From the NCBI GenBank assembly GCA_903970145.1, contig CAJCHO010000062.1, positions 1-48,923 of the forward strand: a DNA stretch of 48,923 nt, read 5' to 3'. This document shows, one piece after another, positions 371 to 22,438 of the stretch. Source of the stretch: Mycobacteriaceae bacterium. Its GTDB lineage: Bacteria > Pseudomonadota > Gammaproteobacteria > Burkholderiales > Burkholderiaceae_D. The notes under the pieces were generated by a model. That model saw nothing but the letters and a program-made list of their open reading frames with translations, was not told the origin of the DNA and did no database searches. Each line of letters opens with the position of its first letter. Within the stretch, counting starts at the first letter, position 1. The translations under genes were made by a program, and so were the position numbers.

Positions 371-1426
371 CTATTCGTCCGGCCAGGGCGCGCCGGGCAC
401 CGTAACCGAGAACACCTCGACAGGCTTCGATAGACCGCGAATCGGCACGAGCCCAATCTCCTCGAACTCGAACTGGTCCTCAAGCTGCAGGCGGGTAGCA
501 GCGTCGGTCAGGATCGGTCGGCGCGCCACCTTGGTGTGCGCCTCAAGCCGCGCTGCCAGATTGACCGACTCGCCAATGCAGGTATAGGTGGCGCGCTTCT
601 GGGTGCCGGTGTAACCAGCGACCATGCGTCCGGTCGCAATGCCGATCCCGATGCGCAAGCCACTCTTGCCGACCATGGCGCGCTCGGCGTTCAGTAACTC
701 GATCATCTCCACCATGTCACGTGCCGCGCGCACAGCACTCGCGCTATGGTCGGGCAACGCGAGCGGCGCGCCAAATACCGCCATCAGGCCGTCGCCTACC
801 ATCTGATTAACTACCCCGCCGTTGCTGCTGATCGCCTCGAACATCAGGGTGTAATAGGTATTGAGAAACTCGATGGTTTCCTCAGGAGGTTGCTGCTCAA
901 CCAGGCTCGTAAAGGAGCGGATGTCGGAGAACATCACGCTGGCCCACACGTGCCGACCTCCCAGCGCAAATCCGGACTCCTGCACATCCTGTGCCACCTC
1001 GGGTGTGGCAAAGCGGCGCACCATTTCACGCTGCTGGTCACGCAGGAATTTCTTCTCCAGGCTGGCGCTGATGCGCGCCTTGAGCAGAATCGGATTTACG
1101 GGCTTACTGAGGTAATCCTCTGCCCCAAGCTCGATGCAACGCACGACGTTGGCGACTCCCTCCACCGAAGAAGTCACCACGACCGGCAGCTCGCGCAAGG
1201 AAAGGTCCGCCTTCAGTTCTTCGAGCACTTCGAAGCCGTTCATTTCCGGCATCTCGATATCGAGCAACAGAAGGTCGAAGGTCTGCTGACGCAACAGGTC
1301 GAGCGCGACCCGGCCGTTTTCGGCGAGCGTGGCACGGTAGCCGTGCAGCTCGAGGCTGCGGGCCAGCAAAAGCCGATTTACCTTGTTGTCATCAACCACC
1401 AACAGGCGCGCACCCGAATCACCCAC
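371..1426 (-). CDS. Two-domain response regulator: an N-terminal CheY-like receiver and a C-terminal class III adenylate/guanylate cyclase (CYCc) domain.
   Basis: The track ORF 371-1633 contains a REC motif (LLVVDDNKVNRLLLARSLELHGY...LLLLDIEMPEMNGFEVL). It also contains cyclase motifs (VMFSDIRSFTSLVE, FLNTYYTLMFEAISSNGGVVNQMVGDGLMAVFGAP, RIGIGIATGRMVAGYTGTQKRATYTCIGESVNLAARLE). The first ~70 codons of the track ORF are Arg-rich and overlap the Hpt ORF. A GTG at 1426-1424 lies 2 nt after the Hpt stop, with an AAGGG 9 nt upstream, so I place the start there. Confidence 0.85.
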   Translation of the reverse strand: MGDSGARLLVVDDNKVNRLLLARSLELHGYRATLAENGRVALDLLRQQTFDLLLLDIEMPEMNGFEVLEELKADLSLRELPVVVTSSVEGVANVVRCIELGAEDYLSKPVNPILLKARISASLEKKFLRDQQREMVRRFATPEVAQDVQESGFALGGRHVWASVMFSDIRSFTSLVEQQPPEETIEFLNTYYTLMFEAISSNGGVVNQMVGDGLMAVFGAPLALPDHSASAVRAARDMVEMIELLNAERAMVGKSGLRIGIGIATGRMVAGYTGTQKRATYTCIGESVNLAARLEAHTKVARRPILTDAATRLQLEDQFEFEEIGLVPIRGLSKPVEVFSVTVPGAPWPDE

Positions 1427-1658
1427 GCCGCAGACCCTTGAGTGCTGCAGCGACCTCGGTGTAAGTATGGGCGAGCGCGTCAACTGCCTTCTCGTCCTGC
1501 GCCGCATCGCTGTGCAAGCCGCCAAGCTCAATCTCGCGCGACTGGGCGGCAAGGCCAAGTGCCCCAAAGGTGTTGCAATTGGATTTGAGCGAATGGGCGT
1601 GGCGCCGGTACGCTTCCGCATTGCGCGCTGCAAGCGCTTCGCGAAGAGATGCGATCAT
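1419..1658 (-). CDS. Hpt (histidine phosphotransfer) domain ORF. It is most likely the frame-shifted C-terminal domain of the upstream 7xGAF protein rather than an independent 79-aa gene.
   Basis: HAHSLKSNCNTFGALGLA is a canonical Hpt phospho-histidine helix. The same frame stays open upstream of the ATG and encodes GAGEQLQESAGPEFVNELVDTFLEEAPQ, the first Hpt helix with the FLEEAP motif. So the domain begins before the annotated Met. The ATG at 1658 overlaps the TGA of the GAF ORF (ATGA). Confidence 0.6.
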   Translation of the reverse strand: MIASLREALAARNAEAYRRHAHSLKSNCNTFGALGLAAQSREIELGGLHSDAAQDEKAVDALAHTYTEVAAALKGLRRG

Positions 1659-4600
1659 CTGCGGCGCCTCCTCCAGAAAGGTGTCGACCAGCTCGTTGAC
1701 GAATTCCGGTCCGGCGCTTTCCTGCAGCTGCTCGCCAGCTCCGCCGCGCGCTCCTCGGTTTCCTTGAGCAGGCGCTGGGTTTCGTCGAACAGACGGGCGT
1801 TTTCCAAGGCTACGCTCATGCTGGCGGCAAGAGTCTCGAGCAAGCGCACATGCGCTGCCGTGAAGGCGTGCTCGCGCTCCATATCTAACAAAGCAATAAC
1901 GCCGCGCGCCTGGTTGCCAGATACCAAAGGGGCAATAATTGCCGACTTCTCTTCAGCGGTGCCGGGAATGGTGTACGTGCCGAGTTCATCCCTCTTCTCG
2001 TTCATGCGCTCATTGACCAGCATCGTCGTTCGGGTTCGCATGACTTCAGCCGTGAATCCAGATTCGGTATCCGGATTAAAGGGTGAAGGCTCGACCGACA
2101 GGCGCTGGCCCGACTCGTAGATGTAGGGAATGAGGAGCGTGTTCGACTTCGCATCGTGGATACGGATCGTGACGTCACCGTTCTGGAAAATCTCGCGAAT
2201 CTTGTCGCCAACGGCGTCGTAAATACCCTGCATGCTCAGTTCCGCAGCCAGGGCCTGCTGAACGCTATTGATGATCGCCAGCTCCGCCGCCCGCTCCCCA
2301 GTCTCCTGTAAGAGGCGCTGGGTTTCATCGAACAGACGGGCGTTTTCCAGCGCTACGCTCATGCCAGCCGCAAGGGTCTCAAGCAGGCGGACCTGCGCAG
2401 GGGTGAAGGCGTGCTCACGCTCCATATTGACCAGGCCAATCACGCCGCGCGCCTGATTCCCGGATATCAGGGGTACATTGATCGAGGACTTCTCCATTTG
2501 CGTCCCGGGAACGAGCACGGCCCCGTAACTGGCCGCCGTCTCAAGCATCTTGTCAGAGATGACCAGGGTCTGACGGCTTCGCATGACATGCGCCATGATT
2601 CCTGACGAAGTCGTCAGATCGAAGGGAGCGGCATCCACATGGAGTCTCTGCCCCGACTCGTACAGGTAAGGGAAGTGTCGCAGTTTCGCTTTATCGTCGT
2701 AGATGGCAATGGATACATCACTGTTCCCAAAAATCTCACCGATCTTGTCGCCAACCGCGTCATAGATCCCCTGCATGCTGAGCTCGGCCGCGAGCGCCTG
2801 CTGCACGCTGTTGATGATGGCAAGCTCAGCCGCGCGTTCCTCGGTTTCCTTCAAAAGTCGTTGTGTTTCGTCAAACAGACGTGCGTTCTCCAGCGCCACC
2901 CCCATGCTCGACGCGACCGTCGATACGAGGCGAATCTCCGCTTCGCCGAAGGCTTCGGCGCTGACGAAACTATCAAGCCCGATGGCACCCAGGACCTGGT
3001 CGCCAGCGATGATCGGCACCGTGAGGTCGCACAACGCTAGATCGGTGCCTTGCACCGTAGCCATCCCTTGTGTAGTCACGCGCACGATTGGCGAGCGCGT
3101 GGCAAGTGCCTGCTCGAAGGGGCCTCCTTTGACCGGCGTCCTGGCTTCGACGTGGATCCGCTTGCCGTGTTCGTAGACGTACAGGTACTCCAGCTTATTC
3201 TCGCTGGCATCGAACCAGATAATCTGAATATCCTCGCTACTGAGTACCGCGCGGAGCTCATCGCCAACCAGATCGATGATCGCAAGGAATTCGAGCTCCG
3301 CGGCGATTCCCTGCTGGATGCTGTTGATAACCGCGAGTTCGCCAGCACGCTGCTCGGTGACGCTCAACAGGCGCTGCGTCTCATCGAACAGGCGGGCATT
3401 CTCGAGAGCTACGCTCATGCTGCCCGCAAGCGTCTGCAAAAGGCGCACATCGGAGTCACTGAACGCGTGCTGCGGATAGGCATACAGAGATATCAAGCCA
3501 ACCGCTTCCTCGTCGCGCAGGATGGGAACAGCGAGATAACTCTCGGTCCACACGCCCTGCGGGTCGCCGATGAACTCGGCGCCCAGCTCGACGGCGCGCT
3601 TTGCCAGGTCTTCTCCGATCAGCAGTGTCTGGCCAGTACGTATGACGTGCGCCGCAAATCCGCGACCGAGCTCCTTGGGCTCTATGACGAAGCGCTTGCC
3701 GCTCTCGAGGAAATAGGGAACCCGCCTGGTATTGCTCGCCTTGTCGTAGAGCGTTATCGACATGTCCTCGGTCTTGAAGATCTCTGCGACCTTGTCGCCG
3801 ACGAGATCAATGATGGCCGTGAAGTCGAGCTTCGAAGCGAGGCCGTCCTGCACGCTGTTTATGATGGCCAGCTCGGCGGCCCGCTGGTCGGTTTCCTTGT
3901 AGAGACGCTGGGTTTCATCGAGCAGGCGTGCGTTCTCCAGCGCCACCCCCATGCTCGCCGCTACCGTCGTCAACAGGCGTATTTCGGATTCACCATAGGC
4001 GTTCTCGCGCTCGTAGTCTTCAAGATGAATCGATCCCAACACCCGATCGCTGCCAATGATCGGTACTGCAGCCACTGAGAAGGCGTGATCCGTACCCGCG
4101 AGGTGACCGATCCCCTCCCGAGCCTGCTCTTCCCGTGAATTCAGGACAAAGGCGCGTCGGGTTTGCAGCAGCCGTTTGAATGTGCCACCTACCAGCTTGG
4201 GCTCAATGTGTAGTCGCTCACCGTGCTCGAACTCGTAGAGATAGTGAATCAGCCCGGTATTTGGGTCGTACCAACGGATGCCGATCTCTTCGGTGTGCAA
4301 CACCTCGCGCAACTTGCCACCGACCAGATCGATGATGGCCTGGAAATTGAGCTCCTGGGCCATGCCTTGCTGGATGCTGTTGATCACCGCGAGTTCAGCC
4401 GCGCGCTGCTCCGTCTCCTTGAGCAGGCGCTGGGTTTGATCGAACAGGCGCGCGTTGGAGAGCGCCACGCTCATGCTCGACGCAAGCGTCTCGAGAAGTC
4501 GGACATGCGACGCGGTATACGCGTGTTCCCGCTCTGTATCGGTAAGCCGAAGCAGCCCGCGCACGCGCCCATCCGAGATCAAGGGCACGTAAAGTGCCGA

Positions 4601-5620
4601 CTTCTCCTCAACAGTTCCGGGCATCAGGTAACTGCCCATCTGCTCAGTTACCTGATCTATGTGCTCGTTGACCAGCAAGGTACGGCCGGTGTCAACGATG
4701 TGTCGCATGAAGCCCCGTTCCGATAGAACATTGGGCGGCAGAAAAAGACGCTCCCGCATTTCGTAGGTATAGGGATAGCTGACCATGCCGCTTTTCTCGT
4801 CGTAGATTCGCACTCCGACGTCGGCCCCATCGAATATTTCGCGCAGCTTGTCGCCCACAGCGTCGTAAATCTCTTGAAGGCCAAGCTCCGCAGCGAGCGC
4901 CTGCTGGATGGCGTTGATGACCGCGAGCTCGCTGGCGCGTTCATCGATCTCGACCTTGGATGCGACCAGCTCGGCGGTGCGTGCGGCAAGTTCGGCCTCG
5001 AGCGCACTGGCGCGACGTGCATTAGCGAGCACGAGCGCAGTCTGAGATGCGAGCATGGCCAGCAAGTTGAGATCATTCGCATCGAAGCGGCCCCATGCCC
5101 CGTCGATGTCGGCGTAGACGTACCCCGTCAGCTCAACGCCAGAGACAAGTGGCGCAATCAGGCATGAGCGTTGATCTGTCGATTTCGCGCCTTGCGGGCC
5201 GTGTCGCAGGCGCGCCTTGCGCGTCCGCCGAGCCTCGTCAATCCAAGGCGTAATCGCCGCTACCAACTTGCGTTGATCCTCGCCAGTTGGCAGGCGTACG
5301 CCTGCCATTGACAGTCCATTCTCGTGCTCAAGAATTATGAGGATTCGTTGGGCGCCAGACACTTCGCTGACCGCATCGATCAGGGAGGTGTAGATTTCTT
5401 CGACCTGTCGATCTGGCGGCAAACTCGCTGCTATAGGAGGCAAACCTCGAGCAGGTGCTTTTTTCCCGGCAGCCCGGCTTCCGGATGCCGGCGCGCGCGC
5501 AGCAGTACGCTTCGCCGGGCTACGCGAATTCGCTTTGATCACTTCCCCTCCCCTGACGGCTTGCGTTCGGTCACCGTGGGGCTTGGCCTGCCACAGCGAA
5601 AATGAAGTATGGCGAGGCAA
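1655..5620 (-). CDS. Large cytoplasmic sensor protein of 1321 aa with about seven tandem GAF domains joined by conserved coiled-coil signalling-helix linkers. It has no recognisable kinase, cyclase or DNA-binding output in this frame.
   Basis: Repeated modules have the form ENARLFDETQRLLKETEERAAELAIINSVQQALAAELSMQGIYDAVGDKI ... PLVSGNQARGVIALLDMEREHAFTAAHVRLLETLAASMSVALENARLFDETQRLL. There are six clear copies plus a more divergent N-terminal GAF-like region. The last two copies are nearly identical in protein sequence. There are no TM segments, and no HisKA or HATPase motifs. Confidence 0.8.
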   Translation of the reverse strand: MPRHTSFSLWQAKPHGDRTQAVRGGEVIKANSRSPAKRTAARAPASGSRAAGKKAPARGLPPIAASLPPDRQVEEIYTSLIDAVSEVSGAQRILIILEHENGLSMAGVRLPTGEDQRKLVAAITPWIDEARRTRKARLRHGPQGAKSTDQRSCLIAPLVSGVELTGYVYADIDGAWGRFDANDLNLLAMLASQTALVLANARRASALEAELAARTAELVASKVEIDERASELAVINAIQQALAAELGLQEIYDAVGDKLREIFDGADVGVRIYDEKSGMVSYPYTYEMRERLFLPPNVLSERGFMRHIVDTGRTLLVNEHIDQVTEQMGSYLMPGTVEEKSALYVPLISDGRVRGLLRLTDTEREHAYTASHVRLLETLASSMSVALSNARLFDQTQRLLKETEQRAAELAVINSIQQGMAQELNFQAIIDLVGGKLREVLHTEEIGIRWYDPNTGLIHYLYEFEHGERLHIEPKLVGGTFKRLLQTRRAFVLNSREEQAREGIGHLAGTDHAFSVAAVPIIGSDRVLGSIHLEDYERENAYGESEIRLLTTVAASMGVALENARLLDETQRLYKETDQRAAELAIINSVQDGLASKLDFTAIIDLVGDKVAEIFKTEDMSITLYDKASNTRRVPYFLESGKRFVIEPKELGRGFAAHVIRTGQTLLIGEDLAKRAVELGAEFIGDPQGVWTESYLAVPILRDEEAVGLISLYAYPQHAFSDSDVRLLQTLAGSMSVALENARLFDETQRLLSVTEQRAGELAVINSIQQGIAAELEFLAIIDLVGDELRAVLSSEDIQIIWFDASENKLEYLYVYEHGKRIHVEARTPVKGGPFEQALATRSPIVRVTTQGMATVQGTDLALCDLTVPIIAGDQVLGAIGLDSFVSAEAFGEAEIRLVSTVASSMGVALENARLFDETQRLLKETEERAAELAIINSVQQALAAELSMQGIYDAVGDKIGEIFGNSDVSIAIYDDKAKLRHFPYLYESGQRLHVDAAPFDLTTSSGIMAHVMRSRQTLVISDKMLETAASYGAVLVPGTQMEKSSINVPLISGNQARGVIGLVNMEREHAFTPAQVRLLETLAAGMSVALENARLFDETQRLLQETGERAAELAIINSVQQALAAELSMQGIYDAVGDKIREIFQNGDVTIRIHDAKSNTLLIPYIYESGQRLSVEPSPFNPDTESGFTAEVMRTRTTMLVNERMNEKRDELGTYTIPGTAEEKSAIIAPLVSGNQARGVIALLDMEREHAFTAAHVRLLETLAASMSVALENARLFDETQRLLKETEERAAELASSCRKAPDRNSSTSWSTPFWRRRRR
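1735..4950 (-). repeat. Intragenic tandem repeat array: six GAF-module units with a period of about 505-545 nt inside the 1321-aa gene.
   Basis: The linker and GAF peptide blocks recur periodically. Their antisense shadow ORFs (MMIASSAARS..., 62-133 aa) recur at 2268, 2775 and 3276 on the plus strand. The DNA of adjacent units is diverged, but the linker segments are conserved. Confidence 0.75.
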
Positions 5621-16397: not shown

Positions 16398-16766
16398 GGC
16401 AGCGTCCGGTGTGGCCTTGATATTGAAGAATACCCGACTGCCGGATCTTCGGCGCAGCAGCCAAAGAGCGCTTGAGGCAAGGATGTTTGGCTTTTGCGCG
16501 CCGCGCGGGCCACGAGCCGCGCGCCAAATCGATCTTGGTACACTAGCATCTGCGGTGCACTCAGGCGCCCCGCCCGCCCCTGATGCCGGCCTGGCGGACT
16601 ATCCAATACCATCATTCATGCCCTACGCAGACCCATCGACTCCAGCTAGCAGCTCCTTCGCCCGGCAAAGGCTTCAGGCGTGTTAGGCCCCTCCAGATTG
16701 ACCCGGCTCAATGCTCCAAGGAACGTCAAGCCGGAGGCGTTCAATGTCGCCCCCGAGCTAGTTGGA

Positions 16767-17531
16767 ATGCCGCTGGCGCGTCCATGGGCGCGCATGTGGG
16801 CCATACTCCTCGATCTGCTGGTGATCGCGATGCTCTCCAGCGTTTCGGGTCTGCTGCTGCTGACCTGCGCCGGCCTCCTGGTGGCCTACCTTATCAAGCG
16901 TGCGCCGCACCAGCGCGTCTCACGCACGCTGATCCTGGCCGCACTGACAATCGGTCTGGCAATTGGTGGCGCGCAGCAGCTCTGGGATGCCACCGGTCCC
17001 AATCACGCCACCAAGGTAAGCGAGCCCGACGAGGATGACGAGGATGCGCCGGCGGCCAACGCCAAGATGACCGACGCGGAGCGCATTGCGGATCTCACAA
17101 AGAAGCTTGAGGAGGCGCAAAAGCCCCATACCTTCAAGCCGATCGACGAGGCAAAAAAGTTCATCCGCAAGCAGGGTGTCAGTTTTGGCTGGGCCGCGCT
17201 GTACTTTTCGGTACTGCCCTTCTGGCTCGGGGGCCAGACCCTCGGCAAGAAGTTGTTCGGTCTGCGAGTAGTCGAATTGACGGGCAAGAAGCTCAAGGTC
17301 CTGCACTATTTGAGCCGCTACGGCGGCTATGCTGCCGGCATGGCGACAGGTATGTTTGGATTTGCCCAGGTTCTCTGGGATCCCAATCGCCAGGCCATCC
17401 AGGACAAGATCTCCCACACCGTGGTGGTCGACCTGCGAGCCAAGCGTGACATCCCTCCGACTCTTCCCCCAGAGTCCGAGCCCAGGCTCGCGGATGAGAA
17501 GGCAGCCAACCCGCCACTGGCAAGCGTTTAG
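16767..17531 (+). CDS. RDD family membrane protein. An alternative upstream start lies at 16680.
   Basis: The N-terminal RDD-type segment is PLARPWARMWAILLDLLVIAML. The C-terminal signature is WLGGQTLGKKLFGLRVVELTGKKL...DKISHTVVV. An acidic/coiled insert (EPDEDDEDAPAANAKMTDAERIADLTKKLEEAQK) lies between the halves. Confidence 0.65.
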   Translation: MPLARPWARMWAILLDLLVIAMLSSVSGLLLLTCAGLLVAYLIKRAPHQRVSRTLILAALTIGLAIGGAQQLWDATGPNHATKVSEPDEDDEDAPAANAKMTDAERIADLTKKLEEAQKPHTFKPIDEAKKFIRKQGVSFGWAALYFSVLPFWLGGQTLGKKLFGLRVVELTGKKLKVLHYLSRYGGYAAGMATGMFGFAQVLWDPNRQAIQDKISHTVVVDLRAKRDIPPTLPPESEPRLADEKAANPPLASV

Positions 17532-17588: not shown

Positions 17589-18176
17589 ATGAGAATCGCC
17601 GCCTCGCAGTCCGCCGCGCCAGCCATGGGCGCATCCTGGTTGTATGAAAGGTCTCTCGGATGGCACCTTGCTGCGGCATTCGTCGCCACTCTGTTTCTCG
17701 CGCTTTCATCCTATGTCGAGGTACCAATGTTCCCGGTGCCCATGACCATGCAGACGTTCGCCGTAACGCTTGTCGGGGCCCTGTACGGCTGGCGCCTGGG
17801 AGCGCTCGCGGTCACTGCCTGGCTCCTCGAGGCCGTGCTCGGTTTGCCGGTCTTGGCAGGTGGTGCAGCCGGCCCCGCATATTTCCTCGGTCCAACGGCT
17901 GGCTACCTGCTTGCATTTCCCTTTGCAGCGGCTCTGGTTGGCTGGCTCGTCGAACACGGGTGGAACGGTCAGCGAGCGGGCCTCTCCTTTCTCGCCATGC
18001 TGATCGGCAACTTCGTGTGCCTCGCCCTCGGGGCTGCCTGGCTAGCGGTTCTCACTGACTCCCTTACTGCACTGACTCTGGGAGTTACACCTTTTGTACT
18101 CGGGGCCGGGCTGAAGTCGGTCCTGGCGGCGGCGACGCTCTGGATCGTCGCACCGAAGACGGCGAGGAGCGCCTAA
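17589..18176 (+). CDS. bioY: BioY family biotin transporter (the S component of an ECF transporter).
   Basis: VPMTMQTFAVTLVGALYGWRLG...GPTAGYLLAFPFAAALVGWL matches the BioY core (PITLQTLxVLLAGxxLG...GPTGGYLIGF). The N-terminal extent is uncertain. Confidence 0.8.
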   Translation: MRIAASQSAAPAMGASWLYERSLGWHLAAAFVATLFLALSSYVEVPMFPVPMTMQTFAVTLVGALYGWRLGALAVTAWLLEAVLGLPVLAGGAAGPAYFLGPTAGYLLAFPFAAALVGWLVEHGWNGQRAGLSFLAMLIGNFVCLALGAAWLAVLTDSLTALTLGVTPFVLGAGLKSVLAAATLWIVAPKTARSA

Positions 18177-18179
18177 ACG

Positions 18180-18620
18180 GTGACGGTCAGACTGCGAGCG
18201 CATCATCTGCTGTGCATGCTGACCTATCAGGGCAAGGGCTATAGTCCCGCTTTCATTGCGGGCGTTGATGCGATCGCGACGCGCATCGGCGAGGGCGAGG
18301 AAATTTCCCTGGTGCAGGGACCTGACGACATCTGCTCTCCCCTGTTGCCAGACTCCGATCCCCACTGCCTGCGCGAGAGCGCCCAATCACGCGATGAGCT
18401 TTCAAGAAGCGATCTGAGCGCATTGCTTGGCGTGTGCCTTGAGACCGGCTCATCGATCCGGATCGATCCCGCCATGCTCGAGACGATGCGTGCGGCATTT
18501 TCCAGTGGTCTCACGCGTCGCGCCTGTCAAGGATGCGAATGGCGAGAACTGTGCGACTCCATTGCCCAGGACGATTTCCGGCCGGTCGTGCTGGCGACTG
18601 TCAAGGCAGCACAAACGTAG
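18180..18620 (+). CDS. DUF1284 domain protein (Cys-containing, function unknown).
   Basis: MTVRLRAHHLLCMLTYQGKGYSPAFIAGVDAI matches the DUF1284 N-terminal (RLRxHHLxC...GxGYS). The gene starts 4 nt after the bioY stop. Confidence 0.6.
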   Translation: MTVRLRAHHLLCMLTYQGKGYSPAFIAGVDAIATRIGEGEEISLVQGPDDICSPLLPDSDPHCLRESAQSRDELSRSDLSALLGVCLETGSSIRIDPAMLETMRAAFSSGLTRRACQGCEWRELCDSIAQDDFRPVVLATVKAAQT

Positions 18621-18700
18621 ACGAACCCGGGTCCGAGGAAACGAGATGCAGTGGCACCCGCTCGCGAGGTTCATACTCGCATCAACGAAGGAGGAGTCCC

Positions 18701-19165
18701 ATGTCAGAGGCGACCAATCTATACGAAGCGCCCAAGGCCACGCTTGACGCGCAAGCTGAAAACCCGAGCTACGAGATTGCCGGGAGGTGGCGCCGATTGG
18801 GCGAGTACCTCGTGGATTTAATCGTCCTGCTGCTCGTAAACTTTGCTTTCGCCTTCGTGATGAAGCAGATGTACGGGAGTCACAACTGGTTTGCGATCCT
18901 CGGGTACCGCGAGGGCCTGGTCTTCGGCACAGCGCTGAACTCAACTTACTATTTCACCCTTGACGCAACGACCAACCGGACACCCGGGAAGATGCTCATG
19001 GGCACAATTGTCGTAACAGAAGACGGCGCCAAGCCGCATACCGCGCAGATTCTGGGTCGCTCGTTGGCGCGCCAAATCCCGTTCGAGTCCCTGTTCATTT
19101 TTGGACGGAAGAGACTCTGCAGACACGACTCGCTATCGCGGACGAAGGTAGTGCGCCTAAATTAG
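18701..19165 (+). CDS. RDD family membrane protein.
   Basis: AGRWRRLGEYLVDLIVLLLVNFAFAFV ... RTPGKMLMGTIVVTEDGAKP has the RDD layout. A GGAGGAG Shine-Dalgarno lies 6 nt upstream of MSEATNLY. The track ORF's 56 upstream codons lack support. Confidence 0.65.
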   Translation: MSEATNLYEAPKATLDAQAENPSYEIAGRWRRLGEYLVDLIVLLLVNFAFAFVMKQMYGSHNWFAILGYREGLVFGTALNSTYYFTLDATTNRTPGKMLMGTIVVTEDGAKPHTAQILGRSLARQIPFESLFIFGRKRLCRHDSLSRTKVVRLN

Positions 19166-21045: not shown

Positions 21046-22272
21046 CTACCGACAATTCGCTGGCGCAAAGGCGGGTCGCAGCGTTGCCCAGGGCGCCACC
21101 GTGAGTCGCTGTGATGCTGCGTAGGTGTAGCTCTGGCTCGCACAAGCCCAGATGATCTGACCTTGGACACCTCTGATCAGGGGATGACCATTGATATTTG
21201 CCTGCAGCGTCAAAATATTGTCCTTACCGATCGCTGGGAGGATCGCTTGGGCGTTGTAAGTGATGGCGATGACACCGCCGTCACCGATTTCAATGGATGA
21301 GACGTATTTGGATGGGACAAATTGATAGTCCCTGGAAAGTGCTGCGGCACTCGGATCGTGCCCGGCCGCAAAGTTTTCGGCGACAATTGCCTTCGCGGCA
21401 TCTGCCTGAAGAAGCCCCTGCGTGATCTTGGCGCGAACCGTGTAATCCTGATACGCCGGTAGTGCGATCGCGGCGAGGATTCCGATGAGAGCTATCCCAC
21501 CGAATACCACCAGCACAACCACCAGGACGATGGCAGCTCCACCACTTGTCGATCGGCGAACGACGACCGTTCCCGCCAGCAAGTCGGACAGTGACTGGCG
21601 GCGCGCCGTGATGAGCTGAATCAGGGCTGTAAACAGCGGCCAACCGGTGAGTATGGAGACCAGTGCCCGCCAGATTCCGCGTCCAAATCCGATTTTCTCG
21701 CCAGAGCTTGCATCCACAACCGCGAGTCCGAGGAGTGAGCGCCCCCAGGTCGCGCGACGCGTGCGCGAATTCAGAAAGCCGTGATACAGGAGAATGGTTC
21801 CGACGTAGCCCAGGATCGCGGCAATCGCGCCAGCGTTGGGGTTGCCCGCAGCAGAGAATCCCGCGGCGAGAGCAACGCCGACAACACCGCAGGGAATGTA
21901 GAGAATCATGCCGTCGACAACTGCGGCACCGACGCGCGCCCAGAAGCCGCCGTAATCTCCGGCCTCGAACGCAGCCGTCGCCATCGCAGCAACTCCTTCG
22001 CTGGCGGCAGATCCACTGCTGCTTGCTGGCGCAGAGTAAATCGAAGCGCCCGTGCGGGCGCGCCGCGCCTGCGCAAGTTCTGCGTCGTAACTCTCCCGAA
22101 GGGAAGTATCCGAGAGAATGGCGTAGGCGCGCCGGACTGCAGCCATTGCTGATTCACGGTCGCCCGGACTTGCCTCCGCGATCTTGCGCATTTCCAGTTC
22201 GTATGCCGATTGAATGAGTTCCGGACTCGCCGAACTAGCCACGCCAAGCAGATCGTAGTGTGTATTCGCCAT
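21046..22272 (-). CDS. Chimeric membrane protein. It has an N-terminal DnaJ-type J domain, an RDD membrane domain, a TM helix that is also a pilin alpha1-N helix, and a C-terminal type IVa pilin-like globular domain with a terminal Cys-Cys loop.
   Basis: The J domain is [28 protein letters not shown]...[15 protein letters not shown]. The RDD domain is [19 protein letters not shown] ... [36 protein letters not shown]. The pilin-like part is [42 protein letters not shown] ... [21 protein letters not shown] ... [14 protein letters not shown] ... IIWACAS...PANCR. This is collinear with PilE/PilA ([24 protein letters not shown] ... KYVKEVEVKNGVVTAT ... KKLSLWA...WFCGQ...STCR). It lacks the prepilin leader and the GFTLIE cleavage/Glu5 motif. 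Confidence 0.7.
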   Translation of the reverse strand: [408 protein letters not shown]

Positions 22273-22438
22273 TGTTTCCGCCTCCCAACGGAATTTAAAT
22301 GCAGTTTGCTTTTAGTAAATCTCTGAGGGACGCCGCCCGATTTTGAACTCACGCGCGGCTACAGCCGCCAGCTGTGCTGCAACCCATAGGTCAGCACTCA
22401 TCGAGAGTGATCTCACCGACACTTCGAGTCCTGCTTGC

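Follow-up and report, generated by a model that had tools for sequence, protein, structure and literature searches.

The 48,923-nucleotide (nt) contig CAJCHO010000062.1 of assembly GCA_903970145.1 (hereafter the window) carries on its minus strand an ATG-initiated open reading frame (ORF) of 408 amino acid residues, which occupies exactly positions 21046..22272, stop codon included, without interruption. It encodes a protein (hereafter the target) in which a J-like domain, an RDD membrane module and a type IV pilin-like domain are joined. The original prediction, made from the letters of the window, had proposed one uninterrupted 408-residue ORF without stating its strand; its extent was confirmed, and all the motifs that it quoted, including WACAS...PANCR, were found in the translation. 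A gap of 166 nt separates the gene from a livM-like gene upstream. The features deduced for the gene are as follows.

21046..22272, minus strand: the whole ORF (J-like/RDD/tethered pilin protein), from the ORF list and identical to P0001 in the protein collection
22281..22286, minus strand: GGGAGG Shine-Dalgarno sequence, 8 nt 5' of the ATG (22272-22270), by direct reading of the sequence
22048..22272, minus strand: residues 1-75, J-like domain, predicted cytoplasmic (Pfam, Foldseek, alignment)
21955..22047, minus strand: residues 76-106, Ala/Ser-rich low-complexity linker (model confidence, comparison of P0001 and P0002)
21553..21954, minus strand: residues 107-240, RDD membrane module (Pfam, conservation, structure model, charge)
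21367..21543, minus strand: residues 244-302, continuous pilin alpha1 helix (structure model, pilin numbering, conservation, phmmer)
21049..21366, minus strand: residues 303-408, pilin globular head, predicted periplasmic (Foldseek, phmmer, cysteine conservation)

Based on the Pfam search, all three domains (DnaJ, RDD and Pilin) exceeded their curated cut-offs in the target, and Pfam, Foldseek and phmmer agreed with the earlier claim that one ORF combines the folds of a J domain and of a type IVa major pilin with an RDD module. No NCBIfam model reached its cut-off for the target or for five relatives. Two AlphaFold2 (AF2) models of the target were used, the second of which was built on a 134-sequence family alignment and had a mean predicted local distance difference test score (pLDDT) of 88 and a predicted template modelling score (pTM) of 0.63. 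Linker residues 75-91 had a pLDDT below 50 in the first model and of about 51-58 in the second, and the linker was the least conserved segment between P0001 and its relative P0002 (52%). In a scan for promoters and terminators, sites were no more numerous than in shuffled sequence. The target is a real single gene for a polytopic inner-membrane protein with a type IV pilin head, and this anatomy is well supported.

The Pfam Pilin model matched residues 279-408 with 38.2 bits (cut-off 22, E 3e-9). When phmmer was used, residues 259-408 matched 9xnc, a pilus subunit determined by cryogenic electron microscopy (E 1e-14); the gonococcal and meningococcal PilE proteins matched at about 1e-11 (N. 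gonorrhoeae pilin 7e-12, from residue 259), and the P. aeruginosa Pa110594 pilin at 1e-10, with a match that reached the last residue. AlphaFold and Foldseek, which the original prediction had proposed as a check on the C-terminal part, recovered the pilin fold: type IVa pilins ranked first (9xnc_G, E 4e-6), with template modelling scores of 0.66-0.71 when normalised to the database structure (3jyz, 0.71). In the AF2 model, one continuous helix of 59 residues (244-302) is followed by a four-stranded antiparallel sheet, in keeping with the lollipop fold of pilins, in which an alpha1 of about 53 residues packs on an antiparallel sheet. Its first part, alpha1-N (residues 244-271), is the predicted transmembrane anchor and runs from in to out, and alpha1-C comprises residues 272-302; G264 and P272 take the places of G14 and P22 of pilins. 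The C-terminal D-region is bracketed by C377 and C407, for which a disulfide is predicted. C377 was invariant in a 17-sequence alignment, and each of the two cysteines was at least 90% conserved across 134 fusions. The target head resembled major pilins most, rather than minor pilins or pseudopilins.

A class III signal peptide defines prepilins: this brief hydrophilic leader ends at Gly(-1) and is cut off by prepilin peptidase. In the filament, Glu5 of one subunit and the N-terminal amine of the next form a pair (PMC10191384). With the pilin numbering anchored on Pro22 (P272), Leu, Val and Val were found in the target at positions -1, +1 and +5, as expected from the earlier claim that leader, cleavage site and Glu5 are absent; neither the G-FTLIE motif nor Gly-1, Phe1 or Glu5 is present, and alpha1 starts at about residue 244. 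The pilin fold is present, but the features that define a filament subunit, namely the class III signal peptide and Glu5, are missing. Compared with the type IVa major pilins (Pa110594 PilA, 3jyz/3jzz; Burkholderia PilA, 9ime; N. gonorrhoeae PilE, 2hi2), the target shares an alpha1 with Gly14 and Pro22, the four-stranded sheet and the Cys-bracketed C-terminal D-region, whereas it lacks the class III signal peptide, Gly-1, Phe1 and Glu5, and its alpha1 is preceded by about 243 residues of J-like and RDD sequence. The missing signal and the AF2 helix 244-302 also supported the earlier reading of alpha1-N as a further transmembrane helix after those of the RDD module. Since the target is without a class III signal peptide and tied to a multi-span domain, neither prepilin-peptidase cleavage nor extraction into a filament is expected, and it is not processable or polymerisable by the known route (PMC10191384). 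The pilin head can almost certainly never be released into a pilus by this protein.

The RDD module was matched by Pfam at residues 107-234 with 52.1 bits (cut-off 24.1, E 1e-13). The name-giving residues R113, D120 and D230 are kept; D230 was invariant, and R113 and D120 were at least 90% conserved. In the AF2 model the RDD region had a pLDDT of 90-97, and the following elements, all encoded on the minus strand, were assigned from it.

Residues 110-141: transmembrane helix 1 (TM1)
Residues 145-169: transmembrane helix 2 (TM2)
Residues 183-187: cytoplasmic beta strand
Residues 196-208 and 212-221: broken pair of short helices, read as re-entrant
Residues 235-239: beta strand

Strands 183-187 and 235-239, together with a bridge at residue 107 just before TM1, were the only strands outside the pilin head, so they are placed together on one side of the membrane, the cytoplasmic one. 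The helix pair 196-208/212-221 would therefore re-enter the membrane rather than cross it, and residues 196-221 are read as a putative re-entrant hairpin. Across the family, the mean number of Lys and Arg residues per loop was 0.4 between TM1 and TM2, 5.1 after TM2 and 3.7 before alpha1-N. The N-terminal domain types of the family (J, zinc ribbon and GYF_2) are of cytoplasmic kinds, and alpha1-N is taken to run N-in/C-out because the relatives with the order GYF_2, transmembrane helix, pilin have a single transmembrane helix. The predicted path thus has the J-like domain inside, TM1 leading out, TM2 leading in, the re-entrant hairpin, and alpha1-N leading out to a periplasmic head. The predicted periplasmic position of the head, which the original prediction had described as a fixed periplasmic domain, is backed by the positive-inside charge distribution, the conserved cysteine pair and the single-pass relatives.

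When the RDD module was compared with solved structures, no sequence link was found; the best match, LptF (E 0.02), was judged spurious. The sole functional report on an RDD protein that was found concerns Halobacillus andaensis, whose RDD protein is reported to be a Na+(Li+,K+)/H+ antiporter (PMC5996927). The target shares with it a Pfam match above the cut-off and the conserved Arg and two Asp residues; however, it is only distantly related and bears extra cytoplasmic and periplasmic domains, and transport by the target would be putative. Tandem RDD-RDD and RDD-RDD-RDD proteins, as well as three consecutive GYF_2-RDD genes at one locus (L036), would fit a trimeric assembly. The PADLOC profile PD-T4-6 (PDLC04051) matched the target RDD through its positions 352-473 of 476 (20.7 bits, E 4e-5) and the RDD of a distant family member, P0062, at E 2e-12; the matched part was the C-terminal ~90-140 profile positions, and other RDD modules, including that of L043 5409..6353, were matched likewise. 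The likeness of the target to PD-T4-6 is at the level of the domain only, since the N-terminal ~330 profile positions, which we take to be a Ser/Thr kinase, are unmatched and no full-length match was obtained. The protein described in the paper on 'PD-T4-6' of S. thermophilus is of the kinase-PASTA type, with no mention of an RDD module. Given the profile match, an RDD module may double as the membrane part of a defence protein. A phage or defence origin of the target was rejected: a fold search of BFVD with the target returned J domains only, PHROGs gave only generic pilin and J matches, the PADLOC match was confined to the RDD domain, and no defence-island context was found.

The target belongs to a large family. 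When a profile built from 17 RDD-pilin sequences was run over 1.84 billion representatives of 50%-identity clusters, 5,962 of them matched at E<=1e-30, the best 150 all being below 1e-72. Local hidden Markov models identified 128 of the 149 best new representatives as RDD-pilin fusions and the other 21 as tandem RDD-RDD or RDD-RDD-RDD proteins. According to a Pfam census of 134 fusions, RDD was matched in 134, Pilin in 132, Zn_Ribbon_1 in 56, GYF_2 in 30, DnaJ in five and N_methyl in none. No prepilin motif (G-FTLIE) was found in the 151 sequences scanned, and no Glu at +5 in the 116 relatives with a recognisable alpha1 core. Exactly two cysteines were present in the head of 119 of 146 fusions, and four in 25 of 146. 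In the absence of a curated model, the family was delimited here by an RDD module, a variable hydrophobic segment, the motif GILAAIA[IL]PAYQDY, a pilin head with a cysteine pair, and no class III signal peptide; the target aligned end to end in the 134-member alignment and was the first match of its own family search. Along alpha1 of the 134 fusions a step in conservation was observed: the consensus fraction was at most 0.45 at positions 1-13 and mostly 0.75-0.98 at positions 14-31 (GILAAIAIPAYQDYTxRA), with positions 28 and 29 at 0.60 and 0.34. The head of the target was 61% identical to that of P0003 and 53% to that of P0004, compared with 39% and 44% for the RDD module in the same pairs; purifying selection therefore seems to act on the head, which would suit a buried periplasmic domain with a conserved partner. 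In a sub-branch formed by P0003, P0004 and P0048, the J-like domain is gone and alpha1 is degenerate (IPSAIDFEVRSK or LPVAMDFEVRSK), yet the head is still 53-61% identical to that of the target, more than the RDD module.

The exact J-like/RDD/pilin triple accounts for about 4% of this common and unnamed architecture and is thus one of its rare branches. The suggestion that the combination was undescribed thus stands for the exact triple and fails for RDD-pilin fusions as such, which form a large family in public data, cultured Xanthomonadales included. Source annotations of the family proteins read 'RDD family protein', 'PilA' or 'YckC/PilE', and no description of RDD-pilin proteins was found in a full-text literature search, which returned only remarks on XAC3805, one of the related leaderless pilin-like proteins. 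A single-protein scan of GTDB species representatives yielded no close relative of the target. When the scan was made with an alignment, at least 10 RDD-pilin genes and at least about 20 other leaderless pilin fusions were found. Among the matches listed, all hosts were Gamma- or Betaproteobacteria, including the cultured Aquimonas voraii DSM 16957, and the best relative of the target was in a betaproteobacterial metagenome-assembled genome (MAG). A word-indexed search revealed RDD-pilin proteins with other N-termini, and leaderless pilins fused to TM2, DUF2628, GYF_2 or an M48 peptidase. The leaderless pilin module was also seen behind other small membrane modules (P0018, P0019, P0021, P0022, P0027, P0029, P0032, P0034; L021, L046, L059, L078), the fusion partners being zinc-ribbon-TM2, DUF2628, M48 peptidase (P0034) and a ribosomal L12-C-like domain with TM2 (L078); in some loci (L046, L059) these fusions occur as tandem gene pairs.

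By clustering of flanking ORFs, one genomic slot was recognised in 10-11 Xanthomonadales genomes, with the order def/fmt, a LysM protein, dprA, smg (DUF494), the slot, topA and tsaC; Pfam searches in X. translucens and precomputed Pfam matches in Ahniella confirmed this order. The slot holds a fused gene in some genomes, GYF_2-RDD-pilin in Ahniella and Aquimonas and RDD-pilin in Chiayiivirga and two MAGs (L050, L062). In Xanthomonas, Pseudoxanthomonas, Stenotrophomonas and Lysobacter it holds the split form, a GYF_2-pilin gene followed by one to three GYF_2-RDD genes. A gene for GYF_2, a transmembrane helix and pilin lies directly 5' of one to three GYF_2-RDD genes in seven genomes (L043 4692..6353; L036, L037, L060, L066, L077, L084), those of Xanthomonas translucens, X. 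bonasiae, two Pseudoxanthomonas, Stenotrophomonas nematodicola, a Lysobacter and a Lysobacteraceae MAG. When two modules are fused in some lineages and encoded side by side at the same position in others, this is a classical sign that they act together. Because the fused gene and the split pair alternate in the same slot, the RDD module and the tethered pilin are considered functionally linked.

XAC3805 of Xanthomonas citri 306, a GYF_2/DUF4339 pilin-like protein, has been called "probably not a bona fide pilin" (Dunger et al. 2014). Like the target, XAC3805 and its orthologues (AZ78_3612 in Lysobacter capsici) have a leaderless type IVa pilin-like domain and are encoded away from pil clusters, and genes of this type also occur in X. 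translucens, Pseudoxanthomonas, Stenotrophomonas and Lysobacter directly 5' of GYF_2-RDD genes. The XAC3805 type is a single-pass protein with the RDD module encoded by a separate neighbour gene, whereas in the target RDD and pilin form one chain; its cytoplasmic domain is GYF_2, whereas the target has a J-like domain and no Pfam match to GYF_2; and it occupies the dprA-smg-[ ]-topA slot, whereas the target gene lies outside that slot and is not counted as a member. No function for XAC3805 was reported in the literature found. Weak NCBIfam matches, far below the cut-off, were observed between the GYF_2 domains of L043 4692..5369, L043 5409..6353 and L023 4647..5708 and the cytoplasmic region of GltJ, a Myxococcus gliding-motility protein, and would fit GYF_2 as a cytoplasmic protein-interaction module.

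At the N-terminus, Pfam DnaJ matched residues 4-63 and barely passed its cut-off (29.7 bits against 27.8, E 7e-7). Residues 1-75 matched J domains by Foldseek (probability 1.0, TMt 0.6-0.79), and the four-helix J-domain fold is present, with helix II, loop, helix III and helix IV. The HPD tripeptide is required for the activation of Hsp70 by J-domain proteins. On inspection of the translation, no HPD was found anywhere in the target; in the alignment with E. coli DnaJ and P0062, its position is occupied by A-E with a one-residue deletion. The closest J-like relatives (P0002, P0005, P0053) have A-H or ASS there, so the replacing residues are not conserved. A functional HPD J domain in the target was rejected on these grounds. 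P0062 has a canonical KYHPDRN J domain (59.9 bits). The original prediction had assigned Hsp70 recruitment to this domain and had itself named loss of HPD as grounds for dropping the claim; Hsp70 recruitment is not supported here. Because the HPD loop is missing, the clade of the target carries a degenerate, J-like domain that should not stimulate Hsp70/DnaK. Tim16/Pam16 are examples of J-like proteins without HPD, to which the target is related by fold only and not by sequence; the membrane-anchored bacterial J protein DjlA has HPD and activates DnaK, unlike the target. To our knowledge, no partner J protein of the target has been described. The label 'DnaJ domain' should not be read as DnaK recruitment when HPD is missing.

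The explanation that we favour, and consider somewhat more probable than all others together, is a periplasmic pilin head that would reside permanently in the inner membrane and work with the RDD module. From N to C terminus, the protein is read, with good support, as a cytoplasmic J-like domain without HPD, a flexible linker, an RDD module with both ends cytoplasmic (two helices that span the membrane fully, a helical hairpin that re-enters it and a small beta sheet on the cytoplasmic side), alpha1-N as a further transmembrane helix from in to out, and alpha1-C with the disulfide-capable head in the periplasm. The pilin head is thereby, in effect, parked permanently in the state of a prepilin before assembly. 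The alternation of fused and split forms in the slot suggests that the RDD module and the tethered head may act as one inner-membrane unit, to which the interchangeable N-terminal domain (zinc ribbon, GYF_2, J or J-like) would serve as an adaptor for cytoplasmic partners. The head itself would most likely face the periplasm as a fixed domain that binds or senses on behalf of the RDD module. A mere anchor would be expected to drift throughout its length, and alpha1 positions 14-31 are conserved; something therefore probably reads the outer-leaflet half of alpha1, possibly another pilin or a component of the pilus machine. Because this half retains the canonical pilin consensus, a plausible partner of the head would be the alpha1/head surface of another pilin-type protein in the membrane.

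Several observations weigh against this explanation. The DnaJ match exceeds the Pfam cut-off by only 1.9 bits, and the re-entrant reading of residues 196-221 draws on secondary structure, charge distribution and logic. Pilins are usually encoded close to, or together with, the PilB/C/D/M-Q machinery that assembles them. No pilus genes were found in the 48.9-kb window or in the flanks of the relatives inspected, no conserved neighbourhood was found for the clade of the target (the contexts in the window and around P0002 and P0004 share nothing), and no genomic association pointed to a binding partner of the pilin head. The conservation of alpha1 positions 14-31 could partly stem from how the relatives were collected. 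Moreover, P0003 and P0004, the closest head relatives of the target, keep the head with a degenerate alpha1 (IPSAIDFEVRSK), so a canonical alpha1 is not indispensable.

Other explanations were weighed. That the ORF is an artefact, in which an assembly join or a frameshift brought together a J-RDD gene and an independent pilin gene, is a doubt raised by the original prediction itself and has a negligible probability. The guanine-cytosine (GC) content is lower over the head-coding part (21050..21500, 0.55-0.56) than over the RDD and J-like parts (21500..22250, 0.61-0.66), as such a join might leave it; but the flanking DNA shares this lower value (about 0.55), and no remnant of a prepilin leader is present at the junction. 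The same architecture recurs in independent assemblies: P0002 (408 residues, 65% identical) is collinear over all 408 residues and comes from an independent 55.6-kb metagenome contig (ENA, JGI, NCBI), P0005 and P0053 have the same three parts, and the RDD-to-pilin junction is common to at least 128 further cluster representatives (128 of the best 149). A chimera was therefore rejected and the fusion taken as real; the lower GC content of the head-coding part may stem from its amino-acid composition or from the module having had an origin of its own. It is very improbable, too, that the target is a cryptic pilin precursor from which a protease cut or an internal start would free a polymerisable pilin. 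A Gly-Gly dipeptide at residues 258-259 would offer a cutting site, and Gly stands at -1 in five of 116 relatives; however, the dipeptide is not conserved (family consensus fraction 0.06 at that column), a cut there would shorten alpha1-N by nine residues and give it no Glu5, the junction has no Met nearby, and the family usually has I, V, A or L at -1. The retention of the architecture across hundreds of clusters argues instead for function as a single chain. Slightly less remote, though still improbable, is a J protein anchored in the inner membrane that would recruit and activate DnaK there and would have the pilin head on its periplasmic side. The J-domain fold is present, and the KYHPDRN motif kept by P0062 makes DnaK coupling plausible for that branch; this is countered by the missing HPD in the target and in P0002, P0005 and P0053, with its unconserved replacements and one-residue deletion. 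Since most family members carry a zinc ribbon or GYF_2 at the N-terminus, DnaK recruitment cannot be the common mechanism of the family.

The alternative of most interest, which we rate as possible but on balance unlikely, is a pilin mimic. Free pilins, the PilC/PilMNO platform or PilS would be engaged by the locked head together with the outer half of alpha1; the result would be control over pilus assembly or pilin homeostasis, or else anchoring or termination of the filament, with the adaptor and the RDD module as output. It is a more specific version of the favoured explanation rather than its opposite; the two are compatible, and fixed binding or sensing is kept as the default. Gamma- and Betaproteobacteria typically carry type IVa pili, and the named hosts among the matches listed all belong to these classes. 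The head is closest to major pilins, and the 134 fusions retain the type IVa consensus at positions 14-31 (mostly 75-98%) while positions 1-13 drift. In addition, modules of membrane-protein quality control are found fused to leaderless pilins, namely the M48 peptidase of P0034 and the HPD J domain of P0062. However, Glu5 is needed for the recruitment and docking of pilins and pseudopilins, and it is missing in all 116 relatives with a recognisable alpha1 core; P0003 and P0004 retain the head and not the canonical alpha1; and no pilus gene adjoined any locus inspected. Leaderless pilin genes had seemed to adjoin canonical pilA, an adjacency that vanished once over-extended ORF starts were corrected.

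In the window, the target gene lies 3' of a liv-type ATP-binding cassette (ABC) operon and 5' of a DUF4440 gene, and a flavin monooxygenase gene is also nearby. The aldehyde dehydrogenase encoded in the window was most similar to proteins of Variovorax, Sterolibacterium, Nitrosomonadales and Rhodocyclaceae, which, like the betaproteobacterial MAG relative of the target, weakly suggests an uncultured betaproteobacterium as host. Two further RDD ORFs are located within 5 kb of it, flanking a BioY gene; they were rejected as recent duplicates of the target RDD, to which they show only remote similarity. A protein of 1321 residues with at least six GAF domains is encoded directly 5' of a cyclase gene.

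16680..17531, plus strand: RDD ORF
17589..18176: BioY gene
18533..19165, plus strand: RDD ORF
371..5620, minus strand: the GAF-domain gene (1655..5620) and a response-regulator/adenylate-guanylate cyclase gene (371..1633)

Taken more broadly, and at some distance from what can be claimed with confidence, the target might belong to a widespread, undescribed inner-membrane system of Beta- and Gammaproteobacteria. In such a system, leaderless, membrane-locked type IVa heads, fused to or paired with RDD, TM2, DUF2628 or M48 modules and with zinc ribbon, GYF_2 or J adaptors, would read or control the membrane pilin pool or the base of the pilus machine through the outer half of alpha1, with RDD perhaps a multimeric channel like Pex2/Pex10/Pex12 as effector. 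For the RDD domain, which is widespread and essentially uncharacterised, the family provides a partner, a constraint on topology (both ends cytoplasmic) and tractable hosts, since Xanthomonas, Stenotrophomonas, Lysobacter and Aquimonas have the fused or split forms in one slot of the core genome. For annotation, neither PilA nor merely 'RDD family protein' fits the RDD-pilin proteins. Pilins, defined by the class III signal peptide, have been examined almost exclusively as building blocks of filaments. In the proteins considered here, the type IVa pilin fold serves instead as a non-polymerising, membrane-locked periplasmic domain, a recruitment that, counted as 50%-identity clusters, numbers at least in the hundreds.

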